A stretch of DNA of 64,000 nucleotides, taken from NCBI GenBank assembly GCA_030619825.1, contig JAUXAS010000001.1, forward strand, positions 10,141-74,140, in the 5' to 3' direction. Below, piece after piece: positions 460 to 57,461 of this stretch. Numbering within the stretch: position 1 is the first letter of the stretch; every line of letters starts with the position of its first letter. Origin of the DNA: Hadesarchaea archaeon. GTDB lineage: Archaea; Hadarchaeota; Hadarchaeia; Hadarchaeales; Hadarchaeaceae. Below the pieces are notes generated by a model. It was not told where the DNA came from, searched no databases, and saw nothing but the letters and a program-made list of their open reading frames with translations. A program made the translations under genes and the position numbers.

Positions 460-1768
460 GTTCGATCGTCGCGCCGATAGCCTCGGTTGCGAGTTTTTCT
501 AGCTCGCGCAAGTTTTTGTCGATATCCTTCTCAGCCCGCTGCGAGTCACGATGGAGCTCCTCGATGGTCGCTCGCGCGTGTTTTAGGTCTGACTTGTGTT
601 TTTCGATAGAACCTTCTAGCTCCGCCTTTTGTTTAAAAAGTGATGTTTGTTCGCGAGCGCGCGTTTGGATTTCCCTGCGGTCGTAAAGGAGGGTGAGCCG
701 CTCTTTGAGCTTCAGTATCTTTTTTTCATCCAGAAGTCCCCGAGCTAGTTCCATTCGTTTCTTCCGTTCGCGGTCGTCCATGCTTATTTTTCCTTCCTCA
801 AGAAGTTCGATCATTTTTTGCAGCAGTGCATCGGTAGAAGCTATTTTTTCATCCGATGAGAGCACTTCGAGTGGATTCTCGATGCAGAGTTCAAGGACTT
901 TTACCATCTCTCGGTCCATTTGATACTCGCCAGCTCTCACGAGTTTTTCCATCTTCCTAAGGGGCCTGCTTAGCCCCGAGATCGCGCTCGATGTGGCATC
1001 CTTCACCTGGGCTATCTCACGCTCGATTCGTTCGAGCTCGCGTCCAGACGCGTCCAAGCTCTTGAATTCCTCGCTGTTGATGAGCCGCGCCAGTTGGTCG
1101 CTCTCGTTCTCAATCAACTTCTTGAGCATCGTGACCTGATTTTCTAATGATTTCGCATCGGTTCGCATACTCTCAATTCGATGGAGGAGCTCCCTTTGCG
1201 ATGATATTTTCGAGGAGATCAAATCAAGCGAGCGCATTCCTCCGCGGGTTCCTTCGATGAGGGCGTGTACTTCCCTAACCAATCCATGCAACCGTCGCAG
1301 GCGCAGTTCGATCGCGTTCAAGCGAGGTCCGAACAACGCTCGGACATGGCGGCCGTGGGTGGCGATTGTGTCGGTCATGAGGTTCACCATTTTCGTCAGT
1401 TTGCCATCGAGTATCGCGAGGTCGTCGGTCGAGAACTCCCCACGCCGCTGGATAGAGGTGGTCGCACGGGTCAGCTTTTCAGCTAGGAGCCTCCGGGCCT
1501 CGAGCGCCGTCTTGCGCAATCCCGGGTAAGCCTCATCGGTCGGTTTGGCATCAGAAAGGGTTTTTAATTCCTTTAAAAGTGCCTCCCGTTCCTCAGACAG
1601 CCTGTCCAGCATGATATTTAATGTGGATTGAGCCTCTGCGAGCTTCTCCCGCTTGAGCTTGTTTACCCGTTCCTCAAGAGAATCTACAGATAATTTTTCA
1701 ACTTGAGGTTCAGGTGGTTTTGGTTTTTTGCCGAAGATCTTGCGGAGGAACATCGGCTCGCCAACCAT
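449..1768 (-). CDS. coiled-coil protein, function unknown
   Basis: 439-aa ORF, highly charged (E/R/K/L-rich) with heptad-like periodicity throughout; no catalytic motifs recognised. Confidence 0.5.
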
Positions 1769-1821
1769 ACATAATTAAGCTGTTGTTTAAATGTTCGGCG
1801 TAGCCACAACAAAACTGTTGA

Positions 1822-2865
1822 TTAAATCACATGCACTGAAGACGCTTTAAATGCAGCATAAACTCCGGAGCCGATCCCCAACTTCATGTCTAGAAAAGAT
1901 CTCTTGGTGATAATTACCACCAGCTCGCGCCCAACATCTACTTTTAACCTCACAGTTGTTCCTCGGTCGGAGATCTCAGTTATCTTACCTTGCAGCATGT
2001 TTCTCCCGCTTGATTTGATTGGTCTTTTTGATAGAAGGATGTCTTCAGGACGGATGCAGACTTTAACTTTACCTTCTTTTTGCGTTACCGCTTCGATTAA
2101 TGCATTTCCGATATCTATCCTAGCGAGGCCTTCCTTTAGTTCCGATTTCCCTGAAAAGATGTTTTCAACTCCGACAAATTTTGCGACGAACTCCCATTTT
2201 GGTTTTCGGAATATTTCGTCTGGCGCTCCAACTTGAATGAGTTTTCCATCGCTCAAGACACCTATCCTGTCACCCAATAGAATTGCTTCGACATGATCAT
2301 GAGTGACGTGAATCGTGGTGACACCAGACCTCTCGTGGAGGTCCTTTAACTCCTTCCTCAACCTTTCCTGCGTTTGCGCATCCAAAGCGCTCAATGGTTC
2401 GTCCAAGAGTAGCACGTCTGGGTCAAGCACAATCGCCCTAGCTAGAGCTACCTTCTGCTGTTCCCCTCCGCTTAAGGTTTTTGGCAATCTTTTGGACAGG
2501 TGAGTGAGACCGAGCAAATTCATAGTGTGCCGTATCTTTTTATTGGTTTCAGATTTCGGAATTTTTTTCAACCTTAACCCGAACTCCACATTCTCTTCAA
2601 CGTTTAGATGAGGGAATAACGAATAGTCTTGGTACACGAAACCAACTTTCCTTTGTTCGGGAGGGAGGTCCGTTATGTTTTTATCGTTTATCCAGATTTC
2701 ACCCAGGTCGGGACGGTGAAACCCAGCGATTAACTCAAGCATGAGGGTTTTTCCCGCCCCCGTTGGACCCAGCACGGTGAAGTACTCCCGTTCTTTGACA
2801 TCTAAATTTATGTTCGTCAGCGAAAAATCGGCCCATTTTTTCGATAAATCCCTAATGCTCAGCAT
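1822..2865 (-). CDS. wtpC: tungstate/molybdate ABC transporter ATP-binding protein (WtpC/ModC type) with C-terminal TOBE domain
   Basis: Walker A GPTGAGKT, ABC signature LSGGEQQKVALARAI, Walker B LLLDEP; operon with permease and WtpA-like binding protein. Confidence 0.85.
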   Translation of the reverse strand: MLSIRDLSKKWADFSLTNINLDVKEREYFTVLGPTGAGKTLMLELIAGFHRPDLGEIWINDKNITDLPPEQRKVGFVYQDYSLFPHLNVEENVEFGLRLKKIPKSETNKKIRHTMNLLGLTHLSKRLPKTLSGGEQQKVALARAIVLDPDVLLLDEPLSALDAQTQERLRKELKDLHERSGVTTIHVTHDHVEAILLGDRIGVLSDGKLIQVGAPDEIFRKPKWEFVAKFVGVENIFSGKSELKEGLARIDIGNALIEAVTQKEGKVKVCIRPEDILLSKRPIKSSGRNMLQGKITEISDRGTTVRLKVDVGRELVVIITKRSFLDMKLGIGSGVYAAFKASSVHVI

Positions 2866-3643
2866 ACAACCGCCCCTGTAGATATTTTAGGCCAACGAAT
2901 ACCGATAAGGTGATCAAGAGAAGTATTACCGCGACGCGCATTCCTTCATAAAGCCCTAGGCTGTAAAATCTGCTCCAAATCATCCCCGGGGCAACCATAG
3001 GGAAAAATCCAACAAGCATGATCACCGCCGCGAACTCGCTTATCGCACGCGCCCAACTCATTATCGCCCCGCTGAATATCTGGGGAAATGCGAGCGGAAA
3101 TGCCACTTTTCGGAAGGCTTCCCATTCCGTAGCGCCTAGGGACCGTGCTACCTTTTCTAGGCGGGGGTCAACGCTTTGAAACCCCTCCTTAGCGGAGTTG
3201 ATGAGGAATGGTGCGGAGACAAATAGCATCGCGACAACAATTCCAGGTAGCGCGCCTTCAAACCTAAGAAAAGGTGAAACTGGCCCGCCAATTAATCCGC
3301 TTAATCCAAAAACTGTCAACAACATGATGCCGGCAACAACGTGAGGTATCGCCATGGGAAGGTCTATTATTCCTTCGATGAGCGCTTTTCCTCGAAAGTT
3401 CTTCCTCGCTAACAAATAAGCTAGGGGGACGCCGAACACGAACGTCACCAGCACTGCAAGGAACGCCGAGAAACAGCTCAGCCCCACCGCTTTTAGAACT
3501 CCTTGGTCAGTGATGGCACTGAGAAATCCAGTCAGGTCAAATGCAAATTGCTTGAAAAAAATATTGGCTATTGGAAGGGCAAGAATAGCTACAATAAAGA
3601 TCCCAAGCGCGATGAATAAGGCGGTTATTCTCTCAATCTTCAC
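2852..3643 (-). CDS. wtpB: tungstate/molybdate ABC transporter permease
   Basis: Multi-TM ABC permease; start overlaps the ATPase gene; located between the binding-protein and ATPase genes. Confidence 0.8.
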   Translation of the reverse strand: MKIERITALFIALGIFIVAILALPIANIFFKQFAFDLTGFLSAITDQGVLKAVGLSCFSAFLAVLVTFVFGVPLAYLLARKNFRGKALIEGIIDLPMAIPHVVAGIMLLTVFGLSGLIGGPVSPFLRFEGALPGIVVAMLFVSAPFLINSAKEGFQSVDPRLEKVARSLGATEWEAFRKVAFPLAFPQIFSGAIMSWARAISEFAAVIMLVGFFPMVAPGMIWSRFYSLGLYEGMRVAVILLLITLSVFVGLKYLQGRLYAEH

Positions 3644-4665
3644 TGTATCACCAATGGTTGAAGATTTTCTGGCAGTTTATCAACATCGCTCGCCACGGCG
3701 GGGATTATCGGCGGCTGACCCCAATTCTCAAAAACCTCCCGCCCATACTCAGTTATCAACAATGTTATGAACTCGATTGCCAAATTCTCATTCGGCGCAT
3801 TCTTGGGTATAGTTATTCCATAGACGATAGGTTTGGCGGTAAACATTTTTTCGTTCGCAAGCCGCACCTTAACTTGTTTATAGATGTTTTCGTAGTCTAT
3901 GCTGGTTAGATTGATTCCATCGGGGAGCTCTACAAATCCAAATCCATGTTGGGCCGCGACGCTTCTGTATTCAAATGCGTAATCGATGCTGTGCGCTTCC
4001 AACTTGACAAGTAGGCTTACCGACTTATCTGAAATCTCCAGCTTATTGGTATTTGGATCCAAGTCCTCTGGCACCTTTATTAGATAATTGTCGTTTCCCT
4101 CAATCACCTCGATGTTGGTGTTGGCCACGATTAAATCATCAAAAATCGTGGAGTTATCATAGCGAATTTCTGCAAGCTGAAAAACCATTGCCGTGCGATA
4201 GCCGCAGGGATCAAGGTTAGGGTTGCCAAATCCAAACTTCACGCCAGTTCTATTGAGGATTTCATACCAATTGTTCTCGTTGATTTCATCTACATAATCG
4301 CTCTCGGCGGTATAGGCGAGCACCATTTCGTTACGTGCAAACTGGATATACCAATCCGCGTACTCAGGGAACATCATATTAGGAATTAGTGAGTAGTCCG
4401 CCGAGGCGAGGATGTCCGCAGCTTTATGAAGTTCAGTTATCTGCATAATGGCTTCTACACTGCCATGGGATTCAAGTTGCACGTCTACATCATGAGAGCT
4501 TTCGAATTGTTTTTCAATTTTCTCAAAGGGTACCGTAAGGCTACCAGCGTGGGAAATCTTCAGCACGCGTTTCCCCCCTATGGAAAATACGAGTACACCC
4601 AAGACGACGGCTATCGTTACCAGAGCGATAATGGTTTTTTCTGTGCCGATACTTTTCATACTCAT
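3640..4665 (-). CDS. wtpA: tungstate/molybdate substrate-binding protein (WtpA family)
   Basis: N-terminal TM/signal anchor, then LKISHAGSL (the archaeal WtpA xxHAGSL motif); first gene of the ABC operon. Confidence 0.75.
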   Translation of the reverse strand: MSMKSIGTEKTIIALVTIAVVLGVLVFSIGGKRVLKISHAGSLTVPFEKIEKQFESSHDVDVQLESHGSVEAIMQITELHKAADILASADYSLIPNMMFPEYADWYIQFARNEMVLAYTAESDYVDEINENNWYEILNRTGVKFGFGNPNLDPCGYRTAMVFQLAEIRYDNSTIFDDLIVANTNIEVIEGNDNYLIKVPEDLDPNTNKLEISDKSVSLLVKLEAHSIDYAFEYRSVAAQHGFGFVELPDGINLTSIDYENIYKQVKVRLANEKMFTAKPIVYGITIPKNAPNENLAIEFITLLITEYGREVFENWGQPPIIPAVASDVDKLPENLQPLVIQ

Positions 4666-4814
4666 ATTTCCCCTTTAGTTAACTAACATGCTTAAAAATT
4701 TTCCTTTTGTTAATCATTAAAGGTTATCAAACGAAAACGTTTTTCCCACTGTTCCTCACGCAAACTTATAATCACTGTCACCCACATTTCCTTGCAACAA
4801 AAGGAGTTGGAGAA

Positions 4815-49008: not shown

Positions 49009-49125
49009 GGGCCCGTGGCTCAGTCTGGTAGGTGCCAGGGCGACTTGGCAGCCAAAAGCGCTCGACGGTAAAACCGGGCGAAGCTCTTAACCGAGCAGTC
49101 GAGGGTTCGAATCCCTCCGGGCCCG
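49009..49125 (+). tRNA. tRNA-Lys(CUU) with two predicted non-canonical introns (about 25 nt after position 22 and about 18 nt after position 30)
   Basis: Acceptor GGGCCCG/CGGGCCC and T arm GAGGG-TTCGAAT-CCCTC are intact. Joining exons GGGCCCGTGGCTCAGTCTGGTAG | AGCG CTCG | GCTCTTAACCGAGCAGTCGAGGG… gives a perfect 74-nt cloverleaf with anticodon loop CUCUUAA. Intron 1 contains a CCAGG-GCGA-CTTGG GNRA hairpin. Upstream is a TTAATTT/GATATATT TATA-like region. Confidence 0.6.
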
Positions 49126-50242: not shown

Positions 50243-52048
50243 TTACGCATACCTGCTCAAGCCGAGTTCCTTGAGCTTTTGGGGGGTAGGTTTGCCATCC
50301 TTCCACCCGCGCAGGGCGTAGTACTCGTCGAGCATCGCTCCCAGCTTAACCACGTGACCTTTAGATGGGCCATCGGGCATCGGTTCCTCGAGCAAACGCT
50401 TGGGTAGCGTGTCGTCCTTGCGGCCAAAGCCCTCGCGGCTGATGAAGAGCCGCTCGAGGGTGTAGATGCGATCACCGGTCTTCAACAGCTCATCGGGCGA
50501 CCACCCCCACCCGGTTATCGCGTTGAGCATCTCCACAATTTCAGGCACCCAGATGGCGAAGGTTGCAAAATTACAAAAGACGGCCGAGTCACAGATGGCG
50601 AATAAGTCTTGAAGCTTTTTCACCCACTGCGCCTTCCCTTCAGTGGCGAAGCGATTGAGCTGCTGGGGCACGCCGAAGATTTCTGGACCAATCATGCAGG
50701 CTCCGAGGTGGCAGCCGCCGCGATTTGAGGTCGCGTACGCCAGCCCCTGCCCTTGGGCACCCCGCGGATCATAGGCAGGGAGCTCAAGTCCCTTCACGTG
50801 CATCGCCAGCTCAGGGGCGCCGTATTTCTCCGCAAGGCGTTTCGCCCCGAGCGCGATGTCGTTTCCGAATCCCAGGCGATAGGCCGTCCGCCAGGTGAGC
50901 TCGACGATCGCTTGTGGGTTGCCGAACTTCAGTTCAAGCCCACCCAGCTTTTCCTTCGAGATCTTTCCGCGCTCGCTGAGCTCCATCGCGCAGCCCACAG
51001 TGTTACCATAGGAGAGGGGGTCAATGCCCAGCTCGTCGCAGAGGTTGTTGGCCTTGGCTATGGCATTCAGGTCATCGATGTAGCACTGGGCTCCTAGCGC
51101 CCAGATCTCCTCGTACTCGGGTCCCTCACCCTCAACCTGATAGGGCGATTGGGTAACGCGAATTACGCGGCTACAATCGATCGGGCATCCCCAGCATCCC
51201 TTGCTCTTTATCAATATTGTCTTCGCAAGGGTTTCACCGCTGATTTTTTCCGCGGTCGGGAAAACGCCCGTTTGGAAGTTTCGAGTGGGAAAGAGGCCGT
51301 GCTCGTTGATGGAGCCTACCGCGATGGCCGTGCCGTAGGTGGGCAGGTCGTGTCCAGTGATTCGGCTCTCCTTCAACATCTTTAACGCATTCTGGACGGC
51401 TTCTTTGAGTTTCTTCTCGTCCGCAACGGGTGGTCTTTTAGTTCCCCGCACGACGATTGCCTTGAGCCGTTTCGACCCCATCACGGCTCCAGCCGCGGTC
51501 CTGCCGGCTGCGCGATGTTTGTCGTTGATGATTGCGGCGCATGACACGAGGTTTTCCCCCGCAGGGCCGATCGAGGCAATCTTGATGTCAGGGCCCCCGA
51601 GTTCCTTGCGGATGCCGTCCTCGGTGTCCCAAGTGCTCTTGCCCCAGTACCGCCCGGCAGGTCGGATCTCCGCCTCTCCCTCGCGTATCCACAGGTAAAC
51701 TGGCTCAGCTGCCTTTCCCTCGATGATTACACCATCATAGCCCGCAAACCTGAGCTCCGGGCCGAAGGTGCCGCCGCAGTCGGTTTCCCCGATGCCACCA
51801 GTTTGGGGTGACTTGGTGATGACGTGAAACATACTGCTCATTGGGAACGCTGTTCCGGTAGCTGGACCCGTCATGAAGAGTAGCTTGTTTTCGGGTCCAA
51901 GGGGATCAGTGCCGGGTTTGAGTTCTTCGATGATGATTTTTACTCCCAAACCGCGACCGCCGATGAATAATTTAACCTCGTCCTCATCCACGAACTCGTC
52001 CCGCATCGAGCCGGAGGAGAGATCGGCGCGCAAGAGCTTCAGCTTCAA
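50243..52048 (-). CDS. aor: tungsten-containing aldehyde:ferredoxin oxidoreductase (AOR family)
   Basis: ~600 aa; N-terminal AOR_N domain and [4Fe-4S]/pterin-binding regions characteristic of AOR. Confidence 0.9.
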   Translation of the reverse strand: MKLKLLRADLSSGSMRDEFVDEDEVKLFIGGRGLGVKIIIEELKPGTDPLGPENKLLFMTGPATGTAFPMSSMFHVITKSPQTGGIGETDCGGTFGPELRFAGYDGVIIEGKAAEPVYLWIREGEAEIRPAGRYWGKSTWDTEDGIRKELGGPDIKIASIGPAGENLVSCAAIINDKHRAAGRTAAGAVMGSKRLKAIVVRGTKRPPVADEKKLKEAVQNALKMLKESRITGHDLPTYGTAIAVGSINEHGLFPTRNFQTGVFPTAEKISGETLAKTILIKSKGCWGCPIDCSRVIRVTQSPYQVEGEGPEYEEIWALGAQCYIDDLNAIAKANNLCDELGIDPLSYGNTVGCAMELSERGKISKEKLGGLELKFGNPQAIVELTWRTAYRLGFGNDIALGAKRLAEKYGAPELAMHVKGLELPAYDPRGAQGQGLAYATSNRGGCHLGACMIGPEIFGVPQQLNRFATEGKAQWVKKLQDLFAICDSAVFCNFATFAIWVPEIVEMLNAITGWGWSPDELLKTGDRIYTLERLFISREGFGRKDDTLPKRLLEEPMPDGPSKGHVVKLGAMLDEYYALRGWKDGKPTPQKLKELGLSRYA

Positions 52049-52144
52049 ACCCCAACCTCCGGAGGAAACCTCGGTGGTCAGTTTTAAGTAAGTTTGGGTG
52101 GTGGTTTGAAAACTAATTAAACCATCTCACGAATACAATCATTT

Positions 52145-52303
52145 GGTAGCCCGGTGGGGTAGACCAGTGATAAATGGGCCCAATGGTCAGGGGTTAAACC
52201 CCCCACAAAATCCTGCGGGCCTTTGGAGCCCGCGACGGTGGAAGGGAAAATCCTGCCGAATTCGAATGTCGACGGGTCGACCGAAGTTCCGCCCCGGGCT
52301 ACC
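52145..52303 (+). ncRNA. candidate structured non-coding element (paralogue 1), identity unknown
   Basis: 159 nt in a non-coding gap; 5' GGTAGCCCGG pairs with 3' CCGGGCTACC; internal GC-rich hairpins (GGGGTTAAACCCC, GCGGGCC…GGCCCGC); shares TGGGGTAGACCAG and CGAAGTTCCG blocks with the copy at 54145. Strand uncertain. Confidence 0.3.
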
Positions 52304-52364
52304 ATTTCGTTCAAGCTACAGCTACTGCAAGTTGGACTTCAACATAGGCAGAAGAAATCGCCCA

Positions 52365-53084
52365 TCACGAGCCGATCAAGATCAAGTCCTCGCGGGTGAC
52401 GAGCTCGTGGAGGTTCCGGACTTTTTCCACCTGGATGTCAGGATAGTTCGGCAGGCGCCCGCCCTGGGTCGAGGCCACAATGAAAAGACTAAACCCACCA
52501 GCTCGAACCTCTTCATACTTTGTTTTGATTCCTCCAACGGGCATCAGTACGCCCGTGGAACCAATGGACGCACTCACCACCGCATTTTGTCGCACTTGGT
52601 TAGGTTCGATATTTTCGCTAGCGTGGATTATCGCGACAAGTGCCACAGCCATCGCAGCGCTAGCAGAGGGCCCGGCGATCGTGGTTCCCTCGGAGAGATT
52701 TTCGAGGGAAACGATAACATCGACCTGCTCCAAGCTTTGGCCCGTCTCTAAAATCGACCAGTGCTCGGCGGCGTCCCTAGCATCGAAAAATGATTCCTGA
52801 GTATCTTCGTTCTCCCACGGCGGCACATTTATCAAGAGGCGGCCTTGGCCGGCTATCAGTCCCACTTTCAGAGTTGCGAGCATTCCCTCTCCGGTGCTCT
52901 TTTCAATCCCGACAATCATGATGGAGCGGGTGTGGTTCTCGCCGTCTGCAAGCTGGAGGGCGGGCAGCTCACTCATCCAGGTGGAAACGAGCACGGCTCC
53001 GAGCAGTAGCCCTAGGAAGAACGAGATAGCGAGGAAGCTGGCCAAGTAGGTTCTTTCCCTTCTCCTAGCCCTCCGGCGCGCCAT
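52365..53084 (-). CDS. membrane-anchored Lon-like serine protease (S16 proteolytic domain only)
   Basis: N-terminal TM; Lon catalytic dyad context AGPSASAAM (Ser) and GGIKTKYEE (Lys). Confidence 0.7.
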   Translation of the reverse strand: MARRRARRRERTYLASFLAISFFLGLLLGAVLVSTWMSELPALQLADGENHTRSIMIVGIEKSTGEGMLATLKVGLIAGQGRLLINVPPWENEDTQESFFDARDAAEHWSILETGQSLEQVDVIVSLENLSEGTTIAGPSASAAMAVALVAIIHASENIEPNQVRQNAVVSASIGSTGVLMPVGGIKTKYEEVRAGGFSLFIVASTQGGRLPNYPDIQVEKVRNLHELVTREDLILIGS

Positions 53085-53133
53085 GAGACCACGTTAATTA
53101 ATACGGATTCCGCTCTCCTTAAAATGTGGTCAA

Positions 53134-53547
53134 ATGCTACCGCGCGCCCTCCCCAAGCCCCAACTTATGGTTGATATAGCATTCGGCGAAGCTTTGGGCG
53201 TATTGTACATCATCTTCAGTTTGTCCCTAAGGGGAATCCAGTCAGAGGTCAACGCTTTATTCCTTGCGAGCTACGCACTGCTCGGTCTAGGTGCCCTTGT
53301 GCTTTACTTGGTTTTCAGCGCAAATCCAAATCTCGCACTTTTACTGCACATTTTTACATTCCCGCTGTTCAGTCTTTTCAACCTCTTCCTGAAGTGGGTG
53401 CCGGACGCGATAGGCAGGGGTGCAGATGTTCAGGTACTGTCCAGCCTCATCCTCGTTTACGTTTTACTCCTGTTGGCGTTCTTCGTCGTTCAGTCCATTT
53501 TGCGCACGCGGACGGCTGGTCGGATAGCAACTGTTCAACTTCCTTAG
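53134..53547 (+). CDS. integral membrane protein, unknown function
   Basis: 137 aa, four hydrophobic helices. Confidence 0.4.
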   Translation: MLPRALPKPQLMVDIAFGEALGVLYIIFSLSLRGIQSEVNALFLASYALLGLGALVLYLVFSANPNLALLLHIFTFPLFSLFNLFLKWVPDAIGRGADVQVLSSLILVYVLLLLAFFVVQSILRTRTAGRIATVQLP

Positions 53548-53656
53548 GTAATCGGAAGATTCTCGTGTTCCCAGAGACACCTCGGGAGCTCGTAAGGAAA
53601 TATTACATGTAACGTGCGGAAGAATAATATGACAAATAGGATATTTAGGTGATTCA

Positions 53657-54064
53657 ATGGATCTCCTTCAACTAATTCTGTTAGCAATGGTTGCACTGAC
53701 TTTAATTATTTCATTTCTTACATGGATAACCCAACAATCGGAACACCGTATAGGTCGCATAAAGTTTGATAAAGAATGGGCGAAAGGCCGACTTATTATG
53801 ATAAAAACCGAGTTAGAGGAAATAGCAAGCAAGCCAGAAGGATATGAGGGTAGATTATTAGCAAGGGTGGGGCAGGACAAATTATGGTGGCGCTCTCCGA
53901 TACTTTATGAACTTTCAGATATTGGTTATGTTCTGGGCCATATGGGTCTATTAGTCCCACGCACACTTATCTATACCATTCTAGAGAAAGATTTTTTCGA
54001 GAACACAGCTAAACTCCAAAAAGCGATAAACCAAATTGAAACACTGTTAAGAGAATTGAGTTAA
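53657..54064 (+). CDS. membrane-anchored hypothetical protein (low-GC island)
   Basis: N-terminal TM; the surrounding 53.56-54.13 kb is about 38% GC. Confidence 0.4.
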   Translation: MDLLQLILLAMVALTLIISFLTWITQQSEHRIGRIKFDKEWAKGRLIMIKTELEEIASKPEGYEGRLLARVGQDKLWWRSPILYELSDIGYVLGHMGLLVPRTLIYTILEKDFFENTAKLQKAINQIETLLRELS

Positions 54065-54144
54065 TTCTTTTATGGTTACGCCCAAAATTATTGGTTTCTC
54101 ACAACCACAAAAGGCGATTTTATTAGAGGGAGTAATTAATACTT

Positions 54145-54278
54145 GGTAGCCCCGTGGGGTAGACCAGCAGTGCTGGGCCTAAAGGCCAATCCTGGCGGAC
54201 GTCGTTAGGACCGCAATCTGGATCCGTCGACCCCGGTTCGAAATCGATTTAGCCGACGAAGTTCCGGGCGGGGCTACC
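54145..54278 (+). ncRNA. candidate structured non-coding element (paralogue 2), identity unknown
   Basis: 134 nt; 5' GGTAGCCCCG pairs with 3' CGGGGCTACC. The G-to-C change at helix position 9 relative to paralogue 1 is compensated on the 3' side. Shared TGGGGTAGACCAG and GACGAAGTTCCG blocks. Confidence 0.3.
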
Positions 54279-54282
54279 ATCC

Positions 54283-54516
54283 CTAAAGCTCAACAACGAT
54301 CGCCGTGTTCGTATCGACGACTCCCTTGATCTTGTGGATTCCTTCGACGACCGTGTTGGTCAGGGTGCTAAGATCTTTGGCCTCGACGAAAACAACGAGG
54401 TCGTAGGGCCCCGTGACCACGTGCACCGATTTCATCCCTCGAAGTCCCTCGAGTTCTTTCGAAACCTGTCTGACTTTACCTATCGCAGCAGTTATCAAAA
54501 TATACGCTTGTACCAA
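54283..54516 (-). CDS. stand-alone AsnC/Lrp-type RAM (ligand-binding) domain protein
   Basis: 77 aa beta-alpha-beta-beta-alpha-beta pattern (HVVTGPYDLVVFVEAKD) typical of the Lrp C-terminal domain; no HTH. Confidence 0.55.
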   Translation of the reverse strand: MVQAYILITAAIGKVRQVSKELEGLRGMKSVHVVTGPYDLVVFVEAKDLSTLTNTVVEGIHKIKGVVDTNTAIVVEL

Positions 54517-56817: not shown

Positions 56818-56864
56818 GCCAAACGAAATCTTGTCCCCCAGCTCTTAAGTCGTTTGCAAGGGAG

Positions 56865-56956
56865 GGGCCAGGGCCGGGATTTGAACCCGACTCACGGGAT
56901 ATCTGCGAGAGGACTCGCCACAGTCCCGGATGTTAACCAGACTACACTACCCTGGC
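56865..56956 (-). tRNA. tRNA-His(GUG) with encoded G-1 and a 17-nt intron at 37/38
   Basis: Minus-strand cloverleaf: G-1 + GCCAGGG acceptor, D arm GUGU/ACAU, anticodon stem CGGGA/UCCCG, loop CU-GUG-G[intron CGAGTCCTCTCGCAGAT]A, T arm UCGGG-UUCAAAU-CCCGG, discriminator C. Confidence 0.75.
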
Positions 56957-57312: not shown

Positions 57313-57461
57313 TCTAAAAATGCCCAGACTGCTTTTGAATGCCTGTGGTGCGGGGGATGGGAATGAAACTCCGATTCGAACCTCTCGGCCTCATTTTCTG
57401 CAATTATTGTGCAAAGCCCCGGGTGAGAAAAATAAAAATCCTTTTGCGACATTGTGATGAT

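Follow-up and report, generated by a model that had tools for sequence, protein, structure and literature searches.

Introns of archaeal transfer RNA (tRNA) genes are defined by the bulge-helix-bulge (BHB) motif, a 4-bp helix between two 3-nt bulges which hold the splice sites (PMC4090602, PMC8450103), with 53/54, 59/60 and 20/21 listed as non-canonical BHB intron positions (PMC4090602). The multi-intron tRNA genes of the Thermoproteales carry several short introns of the BHB, HBh′ and hBH forms at non-canonical sites that include these three, similar introns are common to different tRNA genes, and a sequential dependence has been described in which introns lie so close that one must go before the next motif forms (PMC8450103). 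In Pyrobaculum islandicum, tRNA-Pro(UGG) is interrupted at 25/26, 37/38 and 56/57 (Sugahara et al. 2007/2008, summarised in PMC4090602 and PMC4033280), and reviews and the tRNAscan-SE 2.0 paper give three introns as the maximum for an archaeal tRNA gene (PMC4033280, PMC8450103). Four introns per gene are not unprecedented, since the Asgard lineages Atabeyarchaeia and Freyarchaeia have interruptions in most of their tRNA genes and several introns in over half of them, and four-intron genes are tabulated for Freyarchaeia Arg-TCT, Ile2-CAT and Leu-GAG and for Atabeyarchaeia Trp-CCA (PMC11291895, Supplementary Data 4). For Hadesarchaea, Kaneta et al. (2018, PMC5829648) report an alpha4 EndA endonuclease with an L3 loop and marked tRNA gene disruption. 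Here we describe a locus in a 64,000-nt stretch of a Hadesarchaea archaeon genome (assembly GCA_030619825.1, contig JAUXAS010000001.1, positions 10,141 to 74,140; hereafter the window), in which two related GC-rich elements on the + strand, E1 (52145-52304) and E2 (54145-54279), are very probably genes for tRNA-Gln(UUG) and tRNA-Gln(CUG), cut by four and three short BHB introns at noncanonical positions, as judged from in-silico splicing and comparison with relatives.

E1 and E2 resemble the Thermoproteales genes in having several short introns per gene at non-canonical sites and in sharing similar introns, and E1 also in the close spacing which makes one motif depend on the removal of another. 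They differ in belonging to Hadesarchaea rather than Crenarchaeota and in having none of their seven introns at the canonical position 37/38, while the four introns of E1 compare with three as the maximum in the Thermoproteales papers. The Atabeyarchaeia and Freyarchaeia belong to another phylum, and in their own tRNA-Gln genes the number of introns is 0-2. The red alga Cyanidioschyzon merolae likewise has nuclear tRNA genes in which the D-arm, anticodon loop and T-loop are interrupted by as many as three BHB-type introns, whose ordered removal was shown experimentally by reverse transcription PCR of intermediates (PMC3728597), but this is a eukaryotic nucleus with a different endonuclease complex, and no homology is implied. 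The disrupted tRNA set of Hadesarchaea archaeon YNP_N21 comes from the same archaeal class as E1 and E2; the accessible text of that study gives summary proportions (Figure 7) and does not describe individual genes, intron positions or a four-intron tRNA-Gln (Kaneta et al. 2018, PMC5829648). Our literature search found no paper describing these particular tRNA-Gln genes. E1 and E2 are a rather extreme case of something ordinary in kind and explained by known biology, and reveal no new RNA class and no new mechanism.

Identity and structure of the two elements

The initial annotation had noted two related structured elements with common ends, and this observation stands: E1 and E2 have a 23-nt 5′ end in common, GGTAGCCC(G/C)GTGGGGTAGACCAG, and a common 3′ end, CGAAGTTCCG...(C/G)GGGCTACCA. 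The 14-mer GTGGGGTAGACCAG matched only E1 and E2 in the window with up to two mismatches allowed, and both elements folded better than shuffled sequences (z about -3.1 for each). Rfam gave no match at gathering score over the whole window and nothing relevant at E<=10 in 52000-54400, the unspliced elements did not match the tRNA family RF00005 at gathering score or at E<=10, and ARAGORN with default settings called neither of them. The clean Rfam match which would have spoken for a known family was thus not obtained, as the three to four insertions break the tRNA model.

Removal of the introns gave two 76-nt cloverleaves with encoded CCA, which ARAGORN recognised as full-length tRNA-Gln(ttg) and tRNA-Gln(ctg), and all exon and intron coordinates in the window were verified by reassembly. 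The mature part of E1 (52148-52304) has two introns in the D-loop and one each at 53/54 and 59/60, and that of E2 (54148-54279) has introns in the D-loop and at 32/33 and 59/60. The 5′ ends read AGCCCGG-TG-GGGT-AG in E1 and AGCCCCG-TG-GGGT-AG in E2, and the 3′ ends ...CCGGGCT-A-CCA and ...CGGGGCT-A-CCA, giving a 7-bp acceptor stem with A1-U72, discriminator A and genome-encoded CCA. The anticodon arm of E1 is CGGGC-CUUUGGA-GCCCG, and the 7-nt loops (CUUUGGA in E1, CUCUGGA in E2) contain U33; the GG of the D-arm, the T-loop TTCGAAT and G53-C61 are also present, and apart from a single G-U pair each in the T-stem and D-stem the spliced cloverleaves are free of mismatches. The earlier statement that the elements do not fold as tRNA therefore holds for the unspliced DNA only. 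A first pair A1-U72 is typical of archaeal tRNA-Gln and is kept in all homologues, and together with the anticodons UUG and CUG it defines the predicted glutamine identity of both genes.

Since an archaeal tRNA intron is recognised by its BHB motif, we coded the motif strictly: a block of four exon bases that stops 3 nt short of the 5′ splice site must pair with a block of four intron bases that stops 3 nt short of the 3′ splice site. All seven introns satisfied this, with 4/4 central pairs and two 3-nt bulges, although the second E1 intron has 3/4 central pairs before the removal of the first and 4/4 only afterwards. Both flanking helices (full hBHBh′) are formed in three introns, namely E1 53/54, E2 59/60 and, once its neighbour is removed, E1 59/60, and the D-loop introns lack the outer helix (HBh′). 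Arbitrary splice-site pairs within the two elements reached 4/4 central and at least 3 flanking pairs in only 0.25-0.34% of cases, and shuffled introns reproduced the observed motif in <=0.3% of 20,000 trials per intron. Enumeration of all BHB-compatible excision paths gave 4313 products for E1 and 853 for E2; on screening with ARAGORN for full-length tRNAs, Gln(UUG) and Gln(CUG) were the dominant solutions, and each Gln solution of E1 takes four excisions.

A search with the 5′ pattern of the elements recovered 22 loci, 13 from metagenomes and nine from genome assemblies, each of the nine bearing a Hadesarchaea, Hadarchaeota or Hodarchaeaceae label; single loci are referred to below as L001, L002 and so on. 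The closest include L010, with 97% identity to the window over 10 kb, and L006 with 95%. Every homologue gave one 76-nt product fitting the tRNA-Gln template, its junctions all satisfying the strict BHB rule, and these relatives help to place the individual parts of the window genes, all of which lie on the + strand.

E1 is preceded by a candidate archaeal TATA element, the A/T-rich CTAATTAAA (52113-52121), located 27-35 nt upstream of the mature 5′ end, and similar A/T-rich boxes precede E2 and a tRNA-Lys gene of the window described below. The leader GGT (52145-52147), presumably removed by RNase P, can pair with the ACC of the 3′ ACCA, and the 'terminal helix' reported initially is the acceptor stem extended by this GGT:ACC pairing. 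CUG orthologues found without the search pattern have TGA, TGG or TGT as leader, so GGT is not conserved and the pairing is probably incidental; a functional extension of the helix, absent from these independently found orthologues, was rejected on the same grounds as probably not real. Exon 1 (AGCCCGGTGGGGTAG, 52148-52162) would supply the acceptor 5′ strand, U8, G9, the D-stem 5′ strand, A14 and G15. It is followed at about 15/16 in the D-loop by the 21-nt intron 1 (52163-52183), a relaxed HBh′ form with central helix GGGT/GCCC, bulges AG^A and AA^T (^ marking splice sites or exon junctions) and inner helix CCA/TGG; this site is occupied in every homologue, including the one-intron gene of L013. 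Exon 2 (TGGTC, 52184-52188) is a D-loop piece that includes G18 and G19, and in genes without intron 2 it runs on into the remainder of the D-arm (CGGTCAATCC in L013 UUG and TGGTCAATCC in L002 CUG). Intron 2 (20 nt, 52189-52208) lies on the 3′ side of the D-loop just before A21, with inner helix GGGG/CCCC and central helix GTGG/CCAC, and is precisely absent in E2, L013 and L002 CUG. Exon 3 (52209-52241) contains the D-stem 3′ strand, the anticodon arm (TTG at 52222-52224), the variable loop and the T-stem 5′ strand GGTGG. The 53/54 intron 3 (19 nt, 52242-52260), with central helix CGGT/GCCG, an outer helix of 3 bp and inner helix AGGG/TCCT, is precisely absent in the UUG genes of L002 and L013 and in all CUG genes. 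Exon 4 (TTCGAA, 52261-52266) forms T-loop positions 54-59, and TTCGAAT is uninterrupted in L013 and the intronless CUG genes. The 59/60 intron 4 (21 nt, 52267-52287) has central helix TTCG/CGAA, bulges AA^T and GT^T and inner helix GTCGA/TCGAC, and supplies the CGAAGT part of the conserved CGAAGTTCCG motif. Exon 5 (52288-52304) consists of T60, the T-stem 3′ strand CCGCC, the acceptor 3′ strand CCGGGCT, discriminator A and the encoded CCA.

The predicted exon-exon junctions of E1 are thus GGGGTAG^TGGTC^AATCCTG and GGTGG^TTCGAA^TCCGCC (or GACGGTGG^TTCGAA^TCCGCC), with micro-exons of 5 and 6 nt. Our first decomposition of the D-loop by hand, which removed CCAGTGATAAAT and TGGTCAGGGG...AAAA, also gave a cloverleaf in ARAGORN, yet was wrong, as L002, L013 and the BHB rule identify TGGTC as exon and GGGCCCAA as intron. 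A single long D-loop intron (52163-52208) was likewise rejected, as it would remove the GG-containing TGGTC, which is exonic in genes without intron 2. The 10-mer AAAATCCTGC is present twice in E1, at the junction of intron 2 and exon 3 (52207-52216) and inside the 53/54 intron (52247-52256). This repeat is weaker in relatives (AAAACCCTGC), and could reflect chance or a trace of the origin of the 53/54 intron.

E2 has its own candidate TATA element, the A/T-rich TTTTATTA (54118-54125), 23-30 nt upstream of the mature 5′ end. Exon 1 (AGCCCCGTGGGGTAG, 54148-54162) is followed at about 15/16 by the 20-nt D-loop intron 1 (54163-54182; central helix GGGT/GCCT, inner helix CCAGC/GCTGG), and exon 2 (54183-54200) holds the rest of the D-arm, the anticodon-stem 5′ strand GCGGA and C32. 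Intron 2 (16 nt, 54201-54216) interrupts the anticodon loop at 32/33, with central helix GCGG/CCGC, bulges AC^G and AA^T, and weak flanking helices of 1 and 2 bp. Its L002 counterpart is of other sequence (GCTTCACAAGGCCGCAA) with the motif kept, and in the intronless CUG genes CTCTGGA is contiguous. Exon 3 (54217-54242) comprises U33, the anticodon CTG (54218-54220), the anticodon-stem 3′ strand, the variable loop, the T-stem 5′ strand CCCGG and TTCGAA. The 59/60 intron 3 (20 nt, 54243-54262) is of the full hBHBh′ form, with central helix TTCG/CGAA, the 5-bp T-stem as outer helix and inner helix TCG/CGA, and exon 4 (54263-54279) provides T60, the T-stem 3′ strand CCGGG, the acceptor 3′ strand CGGGGCT, discriminator A and the encoded CCA. 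The predicted junctions are GCGGAC^TCTGGA and GGTTCGAA^TCCGGG.

The likeness of E1 and E2 can be ascribed to three sources. The tRNA-Gln exons contribute the acceptor stem, D-arm and T-arm, the introns in the D-loop and at 59/60 are homologous between the elements, and a 3′ splice motif, CGAA-GT^T, runs directly into the T-stem. In the conserved CGAAGTTCCG, the central-helix strand CGAA of the 59/60 intron is accordingly followed by two bulge bases (GT), by T60 and by the first bases of the T-stem 3′ strand. Two other features reported initially did not hold up on this decomposition. The covariation of a first internal hairpin (GACCA...TGGTC versus CCAGC...GCTGG) compared non-homologous pairings, as TGGTC is the D-loop exon of E1, with AGGCC as its counterpart in E2, and the helix that is homologous in both elements is CCA(G)/(C)TGG inside the first intron; and the palindromes (GTCGAC, GGGCCC, TTCGAA and others) are merely short intron hairpins and the T-loop.

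Proposed splicing order

We propose that a separate A/T-rich promoter box in front of each gene drives its transcription, on the + strand; the position of these boxes, 23-35 nt upstream of the mature 5′ ends, suggests separate promoters and short leaders. The exon-intron junctions of the precursor can fold into a 4-bp helix with two 3-nt bulges, as seen in the sequence, upon which EndA would cut both bulges and an RtcB-type ligase would join the exons, following the established archaeal pathway (PMC4090602). Leader removal would then yield the 76-nt tRNAs with A1-U72 and genome-encoded CCA. Splicing of E1 is likely to be partly ordered, since the helices of two introns depend on prior removals. 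The central helix GTGG/CCAC of intron 2 takes G15 from exon 1, and the unspliced RNA has A opposite C at that place; as this helix needs intron 1 to be out, only 12 of the 24 possible splice orders fit the strict BHB rule. In L019 the intron ends in CCAT, and all 24 orders are allowed. The 59/60 intron of E1 can likewise use the T-stem as outer helix only once the 53/54 intron is out.

Intron presence and conservation in relatives

The relatives provided a series of alleles with and without each of several introns. Four introns, at the same sites as in E1, were found in the UUG genes of the window and ten other distinct sequences; the UUG gene of L002 has three, with precisely the 53/54 intron missing, and that of L013 has only the first D-loop intron, with CGGTCAATCC and CCCGGTTCGAATCCGGG uninterrupted. 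Three introns (D-loop, 32/33 and 59/60) are present in the CUG genes of the window and the L001 and L002 groups, the L013 CUG gene has a single 28-nt D-loop intron, and in eight loci (L005, L007, L008, L011, L014, L015, L018 and L021) an intronless CUG gene occupies the syntenic site, adjoining a four-intron UUG gene. Orthologues with and without an intron differ exactly by that intron (L013, L002 and the L005 group), and the intron-minus alleles fix the predicted exon boundaries independently of the BHB rule. Orthologues with 0, 1, 3 and 4 introns thus form a natural series for BHB intron gain and loss. In Rfam, the L013 UUG gene with its single intron had no more than a weak match to the tmRNA clan, and its neighbouring CUG gene scored 27.2 bits for tRNA, under the gathering score of 29. 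CCA is genome-encoded in both window genes and most homologues; since the CUG genes of L001/L003 (...GGGGCTATCG, L001 about 4066-4200) and of L013 (...GGGGCTACTT, 4294-4396) lack it, CCA encoding is not uniform in the lineage.

Two tRNA-Gln(CUG) backbones were found at the same syntenic site in different relatives (L005 1918-1993, L021 and L013 4294-4396 versus window 54148-54279). The first is UUG-like, with D-stem GGGG/UCCU, T-stem CCCGG and three introns, and the second is distinct, with D-stem GUGU/GCAU and no or one intron. The three-intron CUG genes differ from the L013 UUG gene at 9-10 of 73 positions and from the intronless CUG genes at 17-18, and have two introns in common with the UUG genes. 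Being closer to L013 UUG than to the intronless CUG genes, they suggest an origin by conversion by, or duplication of, the neighbouring UUG gene. We consider it possible, though short of probable, that several propositions hold jointly: that the four-intron gene of this clade, with no intron at the canonical site and with its 5- and 6-nt exons, ranks among the most fragmented known tRNA genes spliced in cis, in a clade that is neither TACK nor Asgard and with a forced splicing order, that the tandem pair represents live intron turnover (0, 1 or 3 introns in syntenic CUG genes of close relatives), and that introns spread by conversion between neighbouring paralogues. The locus adds a clearly resolved case of tRNA gene fragmentation at its upper limit, with a predicted splicing order, in a lineage with a reported alpha4-type endonuclease.

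When the eleven distinct UUG sequences with four introns were compared, 1 of 79 exon columns was variable, versus 23 of 83 intron columns, consistent with selection which follows the predicted exons. The G/C swap in the terminal helix was borne out as a compensatory change at acceptor pair 6:67, which is G-C in E1 and C-G in E2, and GC in 11 and CG in 2 of 13 homologues, with no unpaired cell. In the 13-sequence alignment, the cloverleaf and intron-internal helices were 98.1% paired, versus 35-57% with slid partners, and five pairs had changed on both sides, a number reached in 0 of 500 shuffles. The four BHB central helices were 99% paired, versus 26-56% when slid.

These patterns bear on the three readings offered initially. 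That the elements are processed-RNA precursors was right in kind, as they are predicted to be pre-tRNA genes whose transcripts are cut and re-ligated several times. The main initial reading, a functional, unspliced family of structured small RNAs of about 135-160 nt, not known before, could account for the lack of an Rfam family match, for the better-than-shuffled folding of both sequences and for their retention in relatives, but it is scarcely credible, since conservation is confined to segments that assemble into tRNA-Gln, while the other 81 nt evolve faster (23/83 versus 1/79 variable columns) and are individually missing in relatives exactly at BHB splice sites. Such a family would also leave unexplained the anticodon loops CUUUGGA and C^UCUGGA, the T-loop TTCGAAT and the encoded CCA. 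The third reading, terminal repeats of an old insertion, is taken up with the spacer below.

Several observations weigh against E1 and E2 as working, multiply spliced tRNA-Gln genes. Changes in the BHB central helices are confined to the wobble-compatible kinds G-C/G-U and U-A/U-G, with none compensated on both sides. A loose BHB search is permissive, with dozens of chance motifs per element, so that BHB matches would not convince by themselves, for which reason the enumeration with ARAGORN, the shuffles and the intron-minus alleles were added. In the unspliced precursor four of the seven introns lack the outer exon-exon helix (relaxed HBh′), and the 32/33 intron has only 1 + 2 flanking pairs, so a broad-specificity endonuclease would be needed. 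Both genes are missed by Rfam (even at E<=10) and by default ARAGORN, their identification relies on in-silico splicing, and we infer the transcripts, cleavage sites and ligation alike from the DNA sequence. Only 64 kb of the genome is visible, and an additional intronless tRNA-Gln(UUG) gene may lie elsewhere.

The last point, together with the unusual fragmentation, would also suit decaying tRNA-Gln pseudogenes which accumulated insertions while functional tRNA-Gln genes reside elsewhere in the genome. We regard such decay as very unlikely, as the exons are near-invariant across relatives whose flanking DNA is only 82-85% identical, each insertion has an intact BHB motif in each relative, and changes in the helices preserve pairing. 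Moreover, none of the relatives examined has any tRNA-Gln(UUG) candidate at the locus other than the four-intron gene, and the spliced cloverleaf has no mismatch save the single G-U pairs in the T-stem and D-stem. Functional, intron-rich tRNA-Gln genes remain the preferred interpretation.

The variable spacer and other tRNA genes of the window

The spacer between E1 and E2 (52305-54144) lies outside the tRNA genes and is a hot spot of gene content, ranging from 76 nt to 4.1 kb among relatives. In the window and its close relatives it measures 1.84 kb, and its three genes are as first described: an S16/Lon_C-like protein gene (52365-53084, - strand) with a weak Lon_C (S16) match, a 137-amino acid hydrophobic membrane open reading frame (ORF; 53134-53547, +) and a 135-amino acid ORF (53657-54064, +) of 38.5% GC versus 53% for the window, which for that reason looks recently acquired. 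Of the three, the S16/Lon_C-like gene and the 38.5%-GC ORF are confined to the closest relatives of the window. The L001 (3512-4065) and L005 groups have a spacer of about 0.55 kb with the 137-amino acid membrane ORF only, L013 has 76 nt (4249-4295 compared) with no gene, and L002 has 4.1 kb (709-4801).

This variability, the low-GC ORF in a 53%-GC window and the fact that tRNA genes are common integration targets fit with E1 and E2 being terminal direct (att-like) repeats of a 1.8-kb insertion or integrated element. The absence of the 52.3-54.1 kb segment from relatives had been raised in the initial annotation, and the segment indeed varies, but the tRNA genes are not its repeats: they are complete genes, one for each isoacceptor, and differ in anticodon arm and intron set. 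Both also occur in relatives where the DNA between them is largely or wholly missing (spacers of about 0.55 kb in the L001 and L005 groups and of 76 nt in L013, the latter already contradicting the repeat reading). In the three intervening ORFs no domain of an integrase or transposase was detected, and the similarity of E1 and E2 tracks tRNA exon and intron homology, with no clean duplicated target. As the tRNA genes predate the insert, we consider terminal repeats highly improbable, and read E1 and E2 as a tandem pair of tRNA-Gln genes around a variable spacer.

A scan of the window for hidden tRNAs by acceptor stem and NCCA was too noisy, with only E1 and E2 standing out. A GC-rich stretch on the - strand (57340-57440) follows an TTTTTATTTTT box and holds a T-loop-like GGTTCGAATC and ...CCCCCGCACCA. 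It gave no Rfam match even at E<=10 and no tRNA could be assembled from it, and it could be another piece of a heavily disrupted or split tRNA, an unrelated small RNA, or nothing.

Two further tRNA genes were recognised in the window. A hidden tRNA-Lys(CUU) (49009-49124, +) has two non-canonical BHB introns, one of 25 nt at about 22/23 (49032-49056, +; central helix TGGT/GCCA) and one of 18 nt at 30/31 (49065-49082, +; central helix CGCT/GGCG). ARAGORN in intron mode miscalled it as tRNA-Arg(GCG) with one 34-nt intron, and removal of both introns gave a perfect Lys(CTT) cloverleaf. The tRNA-His(GUG) gene (56864-56956, -) has a single 17-nt intron in the anticodon loop, and was reported by default ARAGORN as 'tRNA-???' with a 4-base anticodon. 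The two essential genes E1 and E2 and the tRNA-Lys gene are thus invisible to, or miscalled by, ARAGORN and Rfam, which constitutes an annotation trap; where inferences on genome completeness and codon usage in Hadesarchaea assemblies depend on such tools, they will under-count tRNAs. All four visible tRNA genes of the window are interrupted (Lys by two introns, the Gln genes by four and three, and His by one, ten in total), an intron density that is high even beside Thermoproteales or Asgard archaea, for a small sample of four genes.

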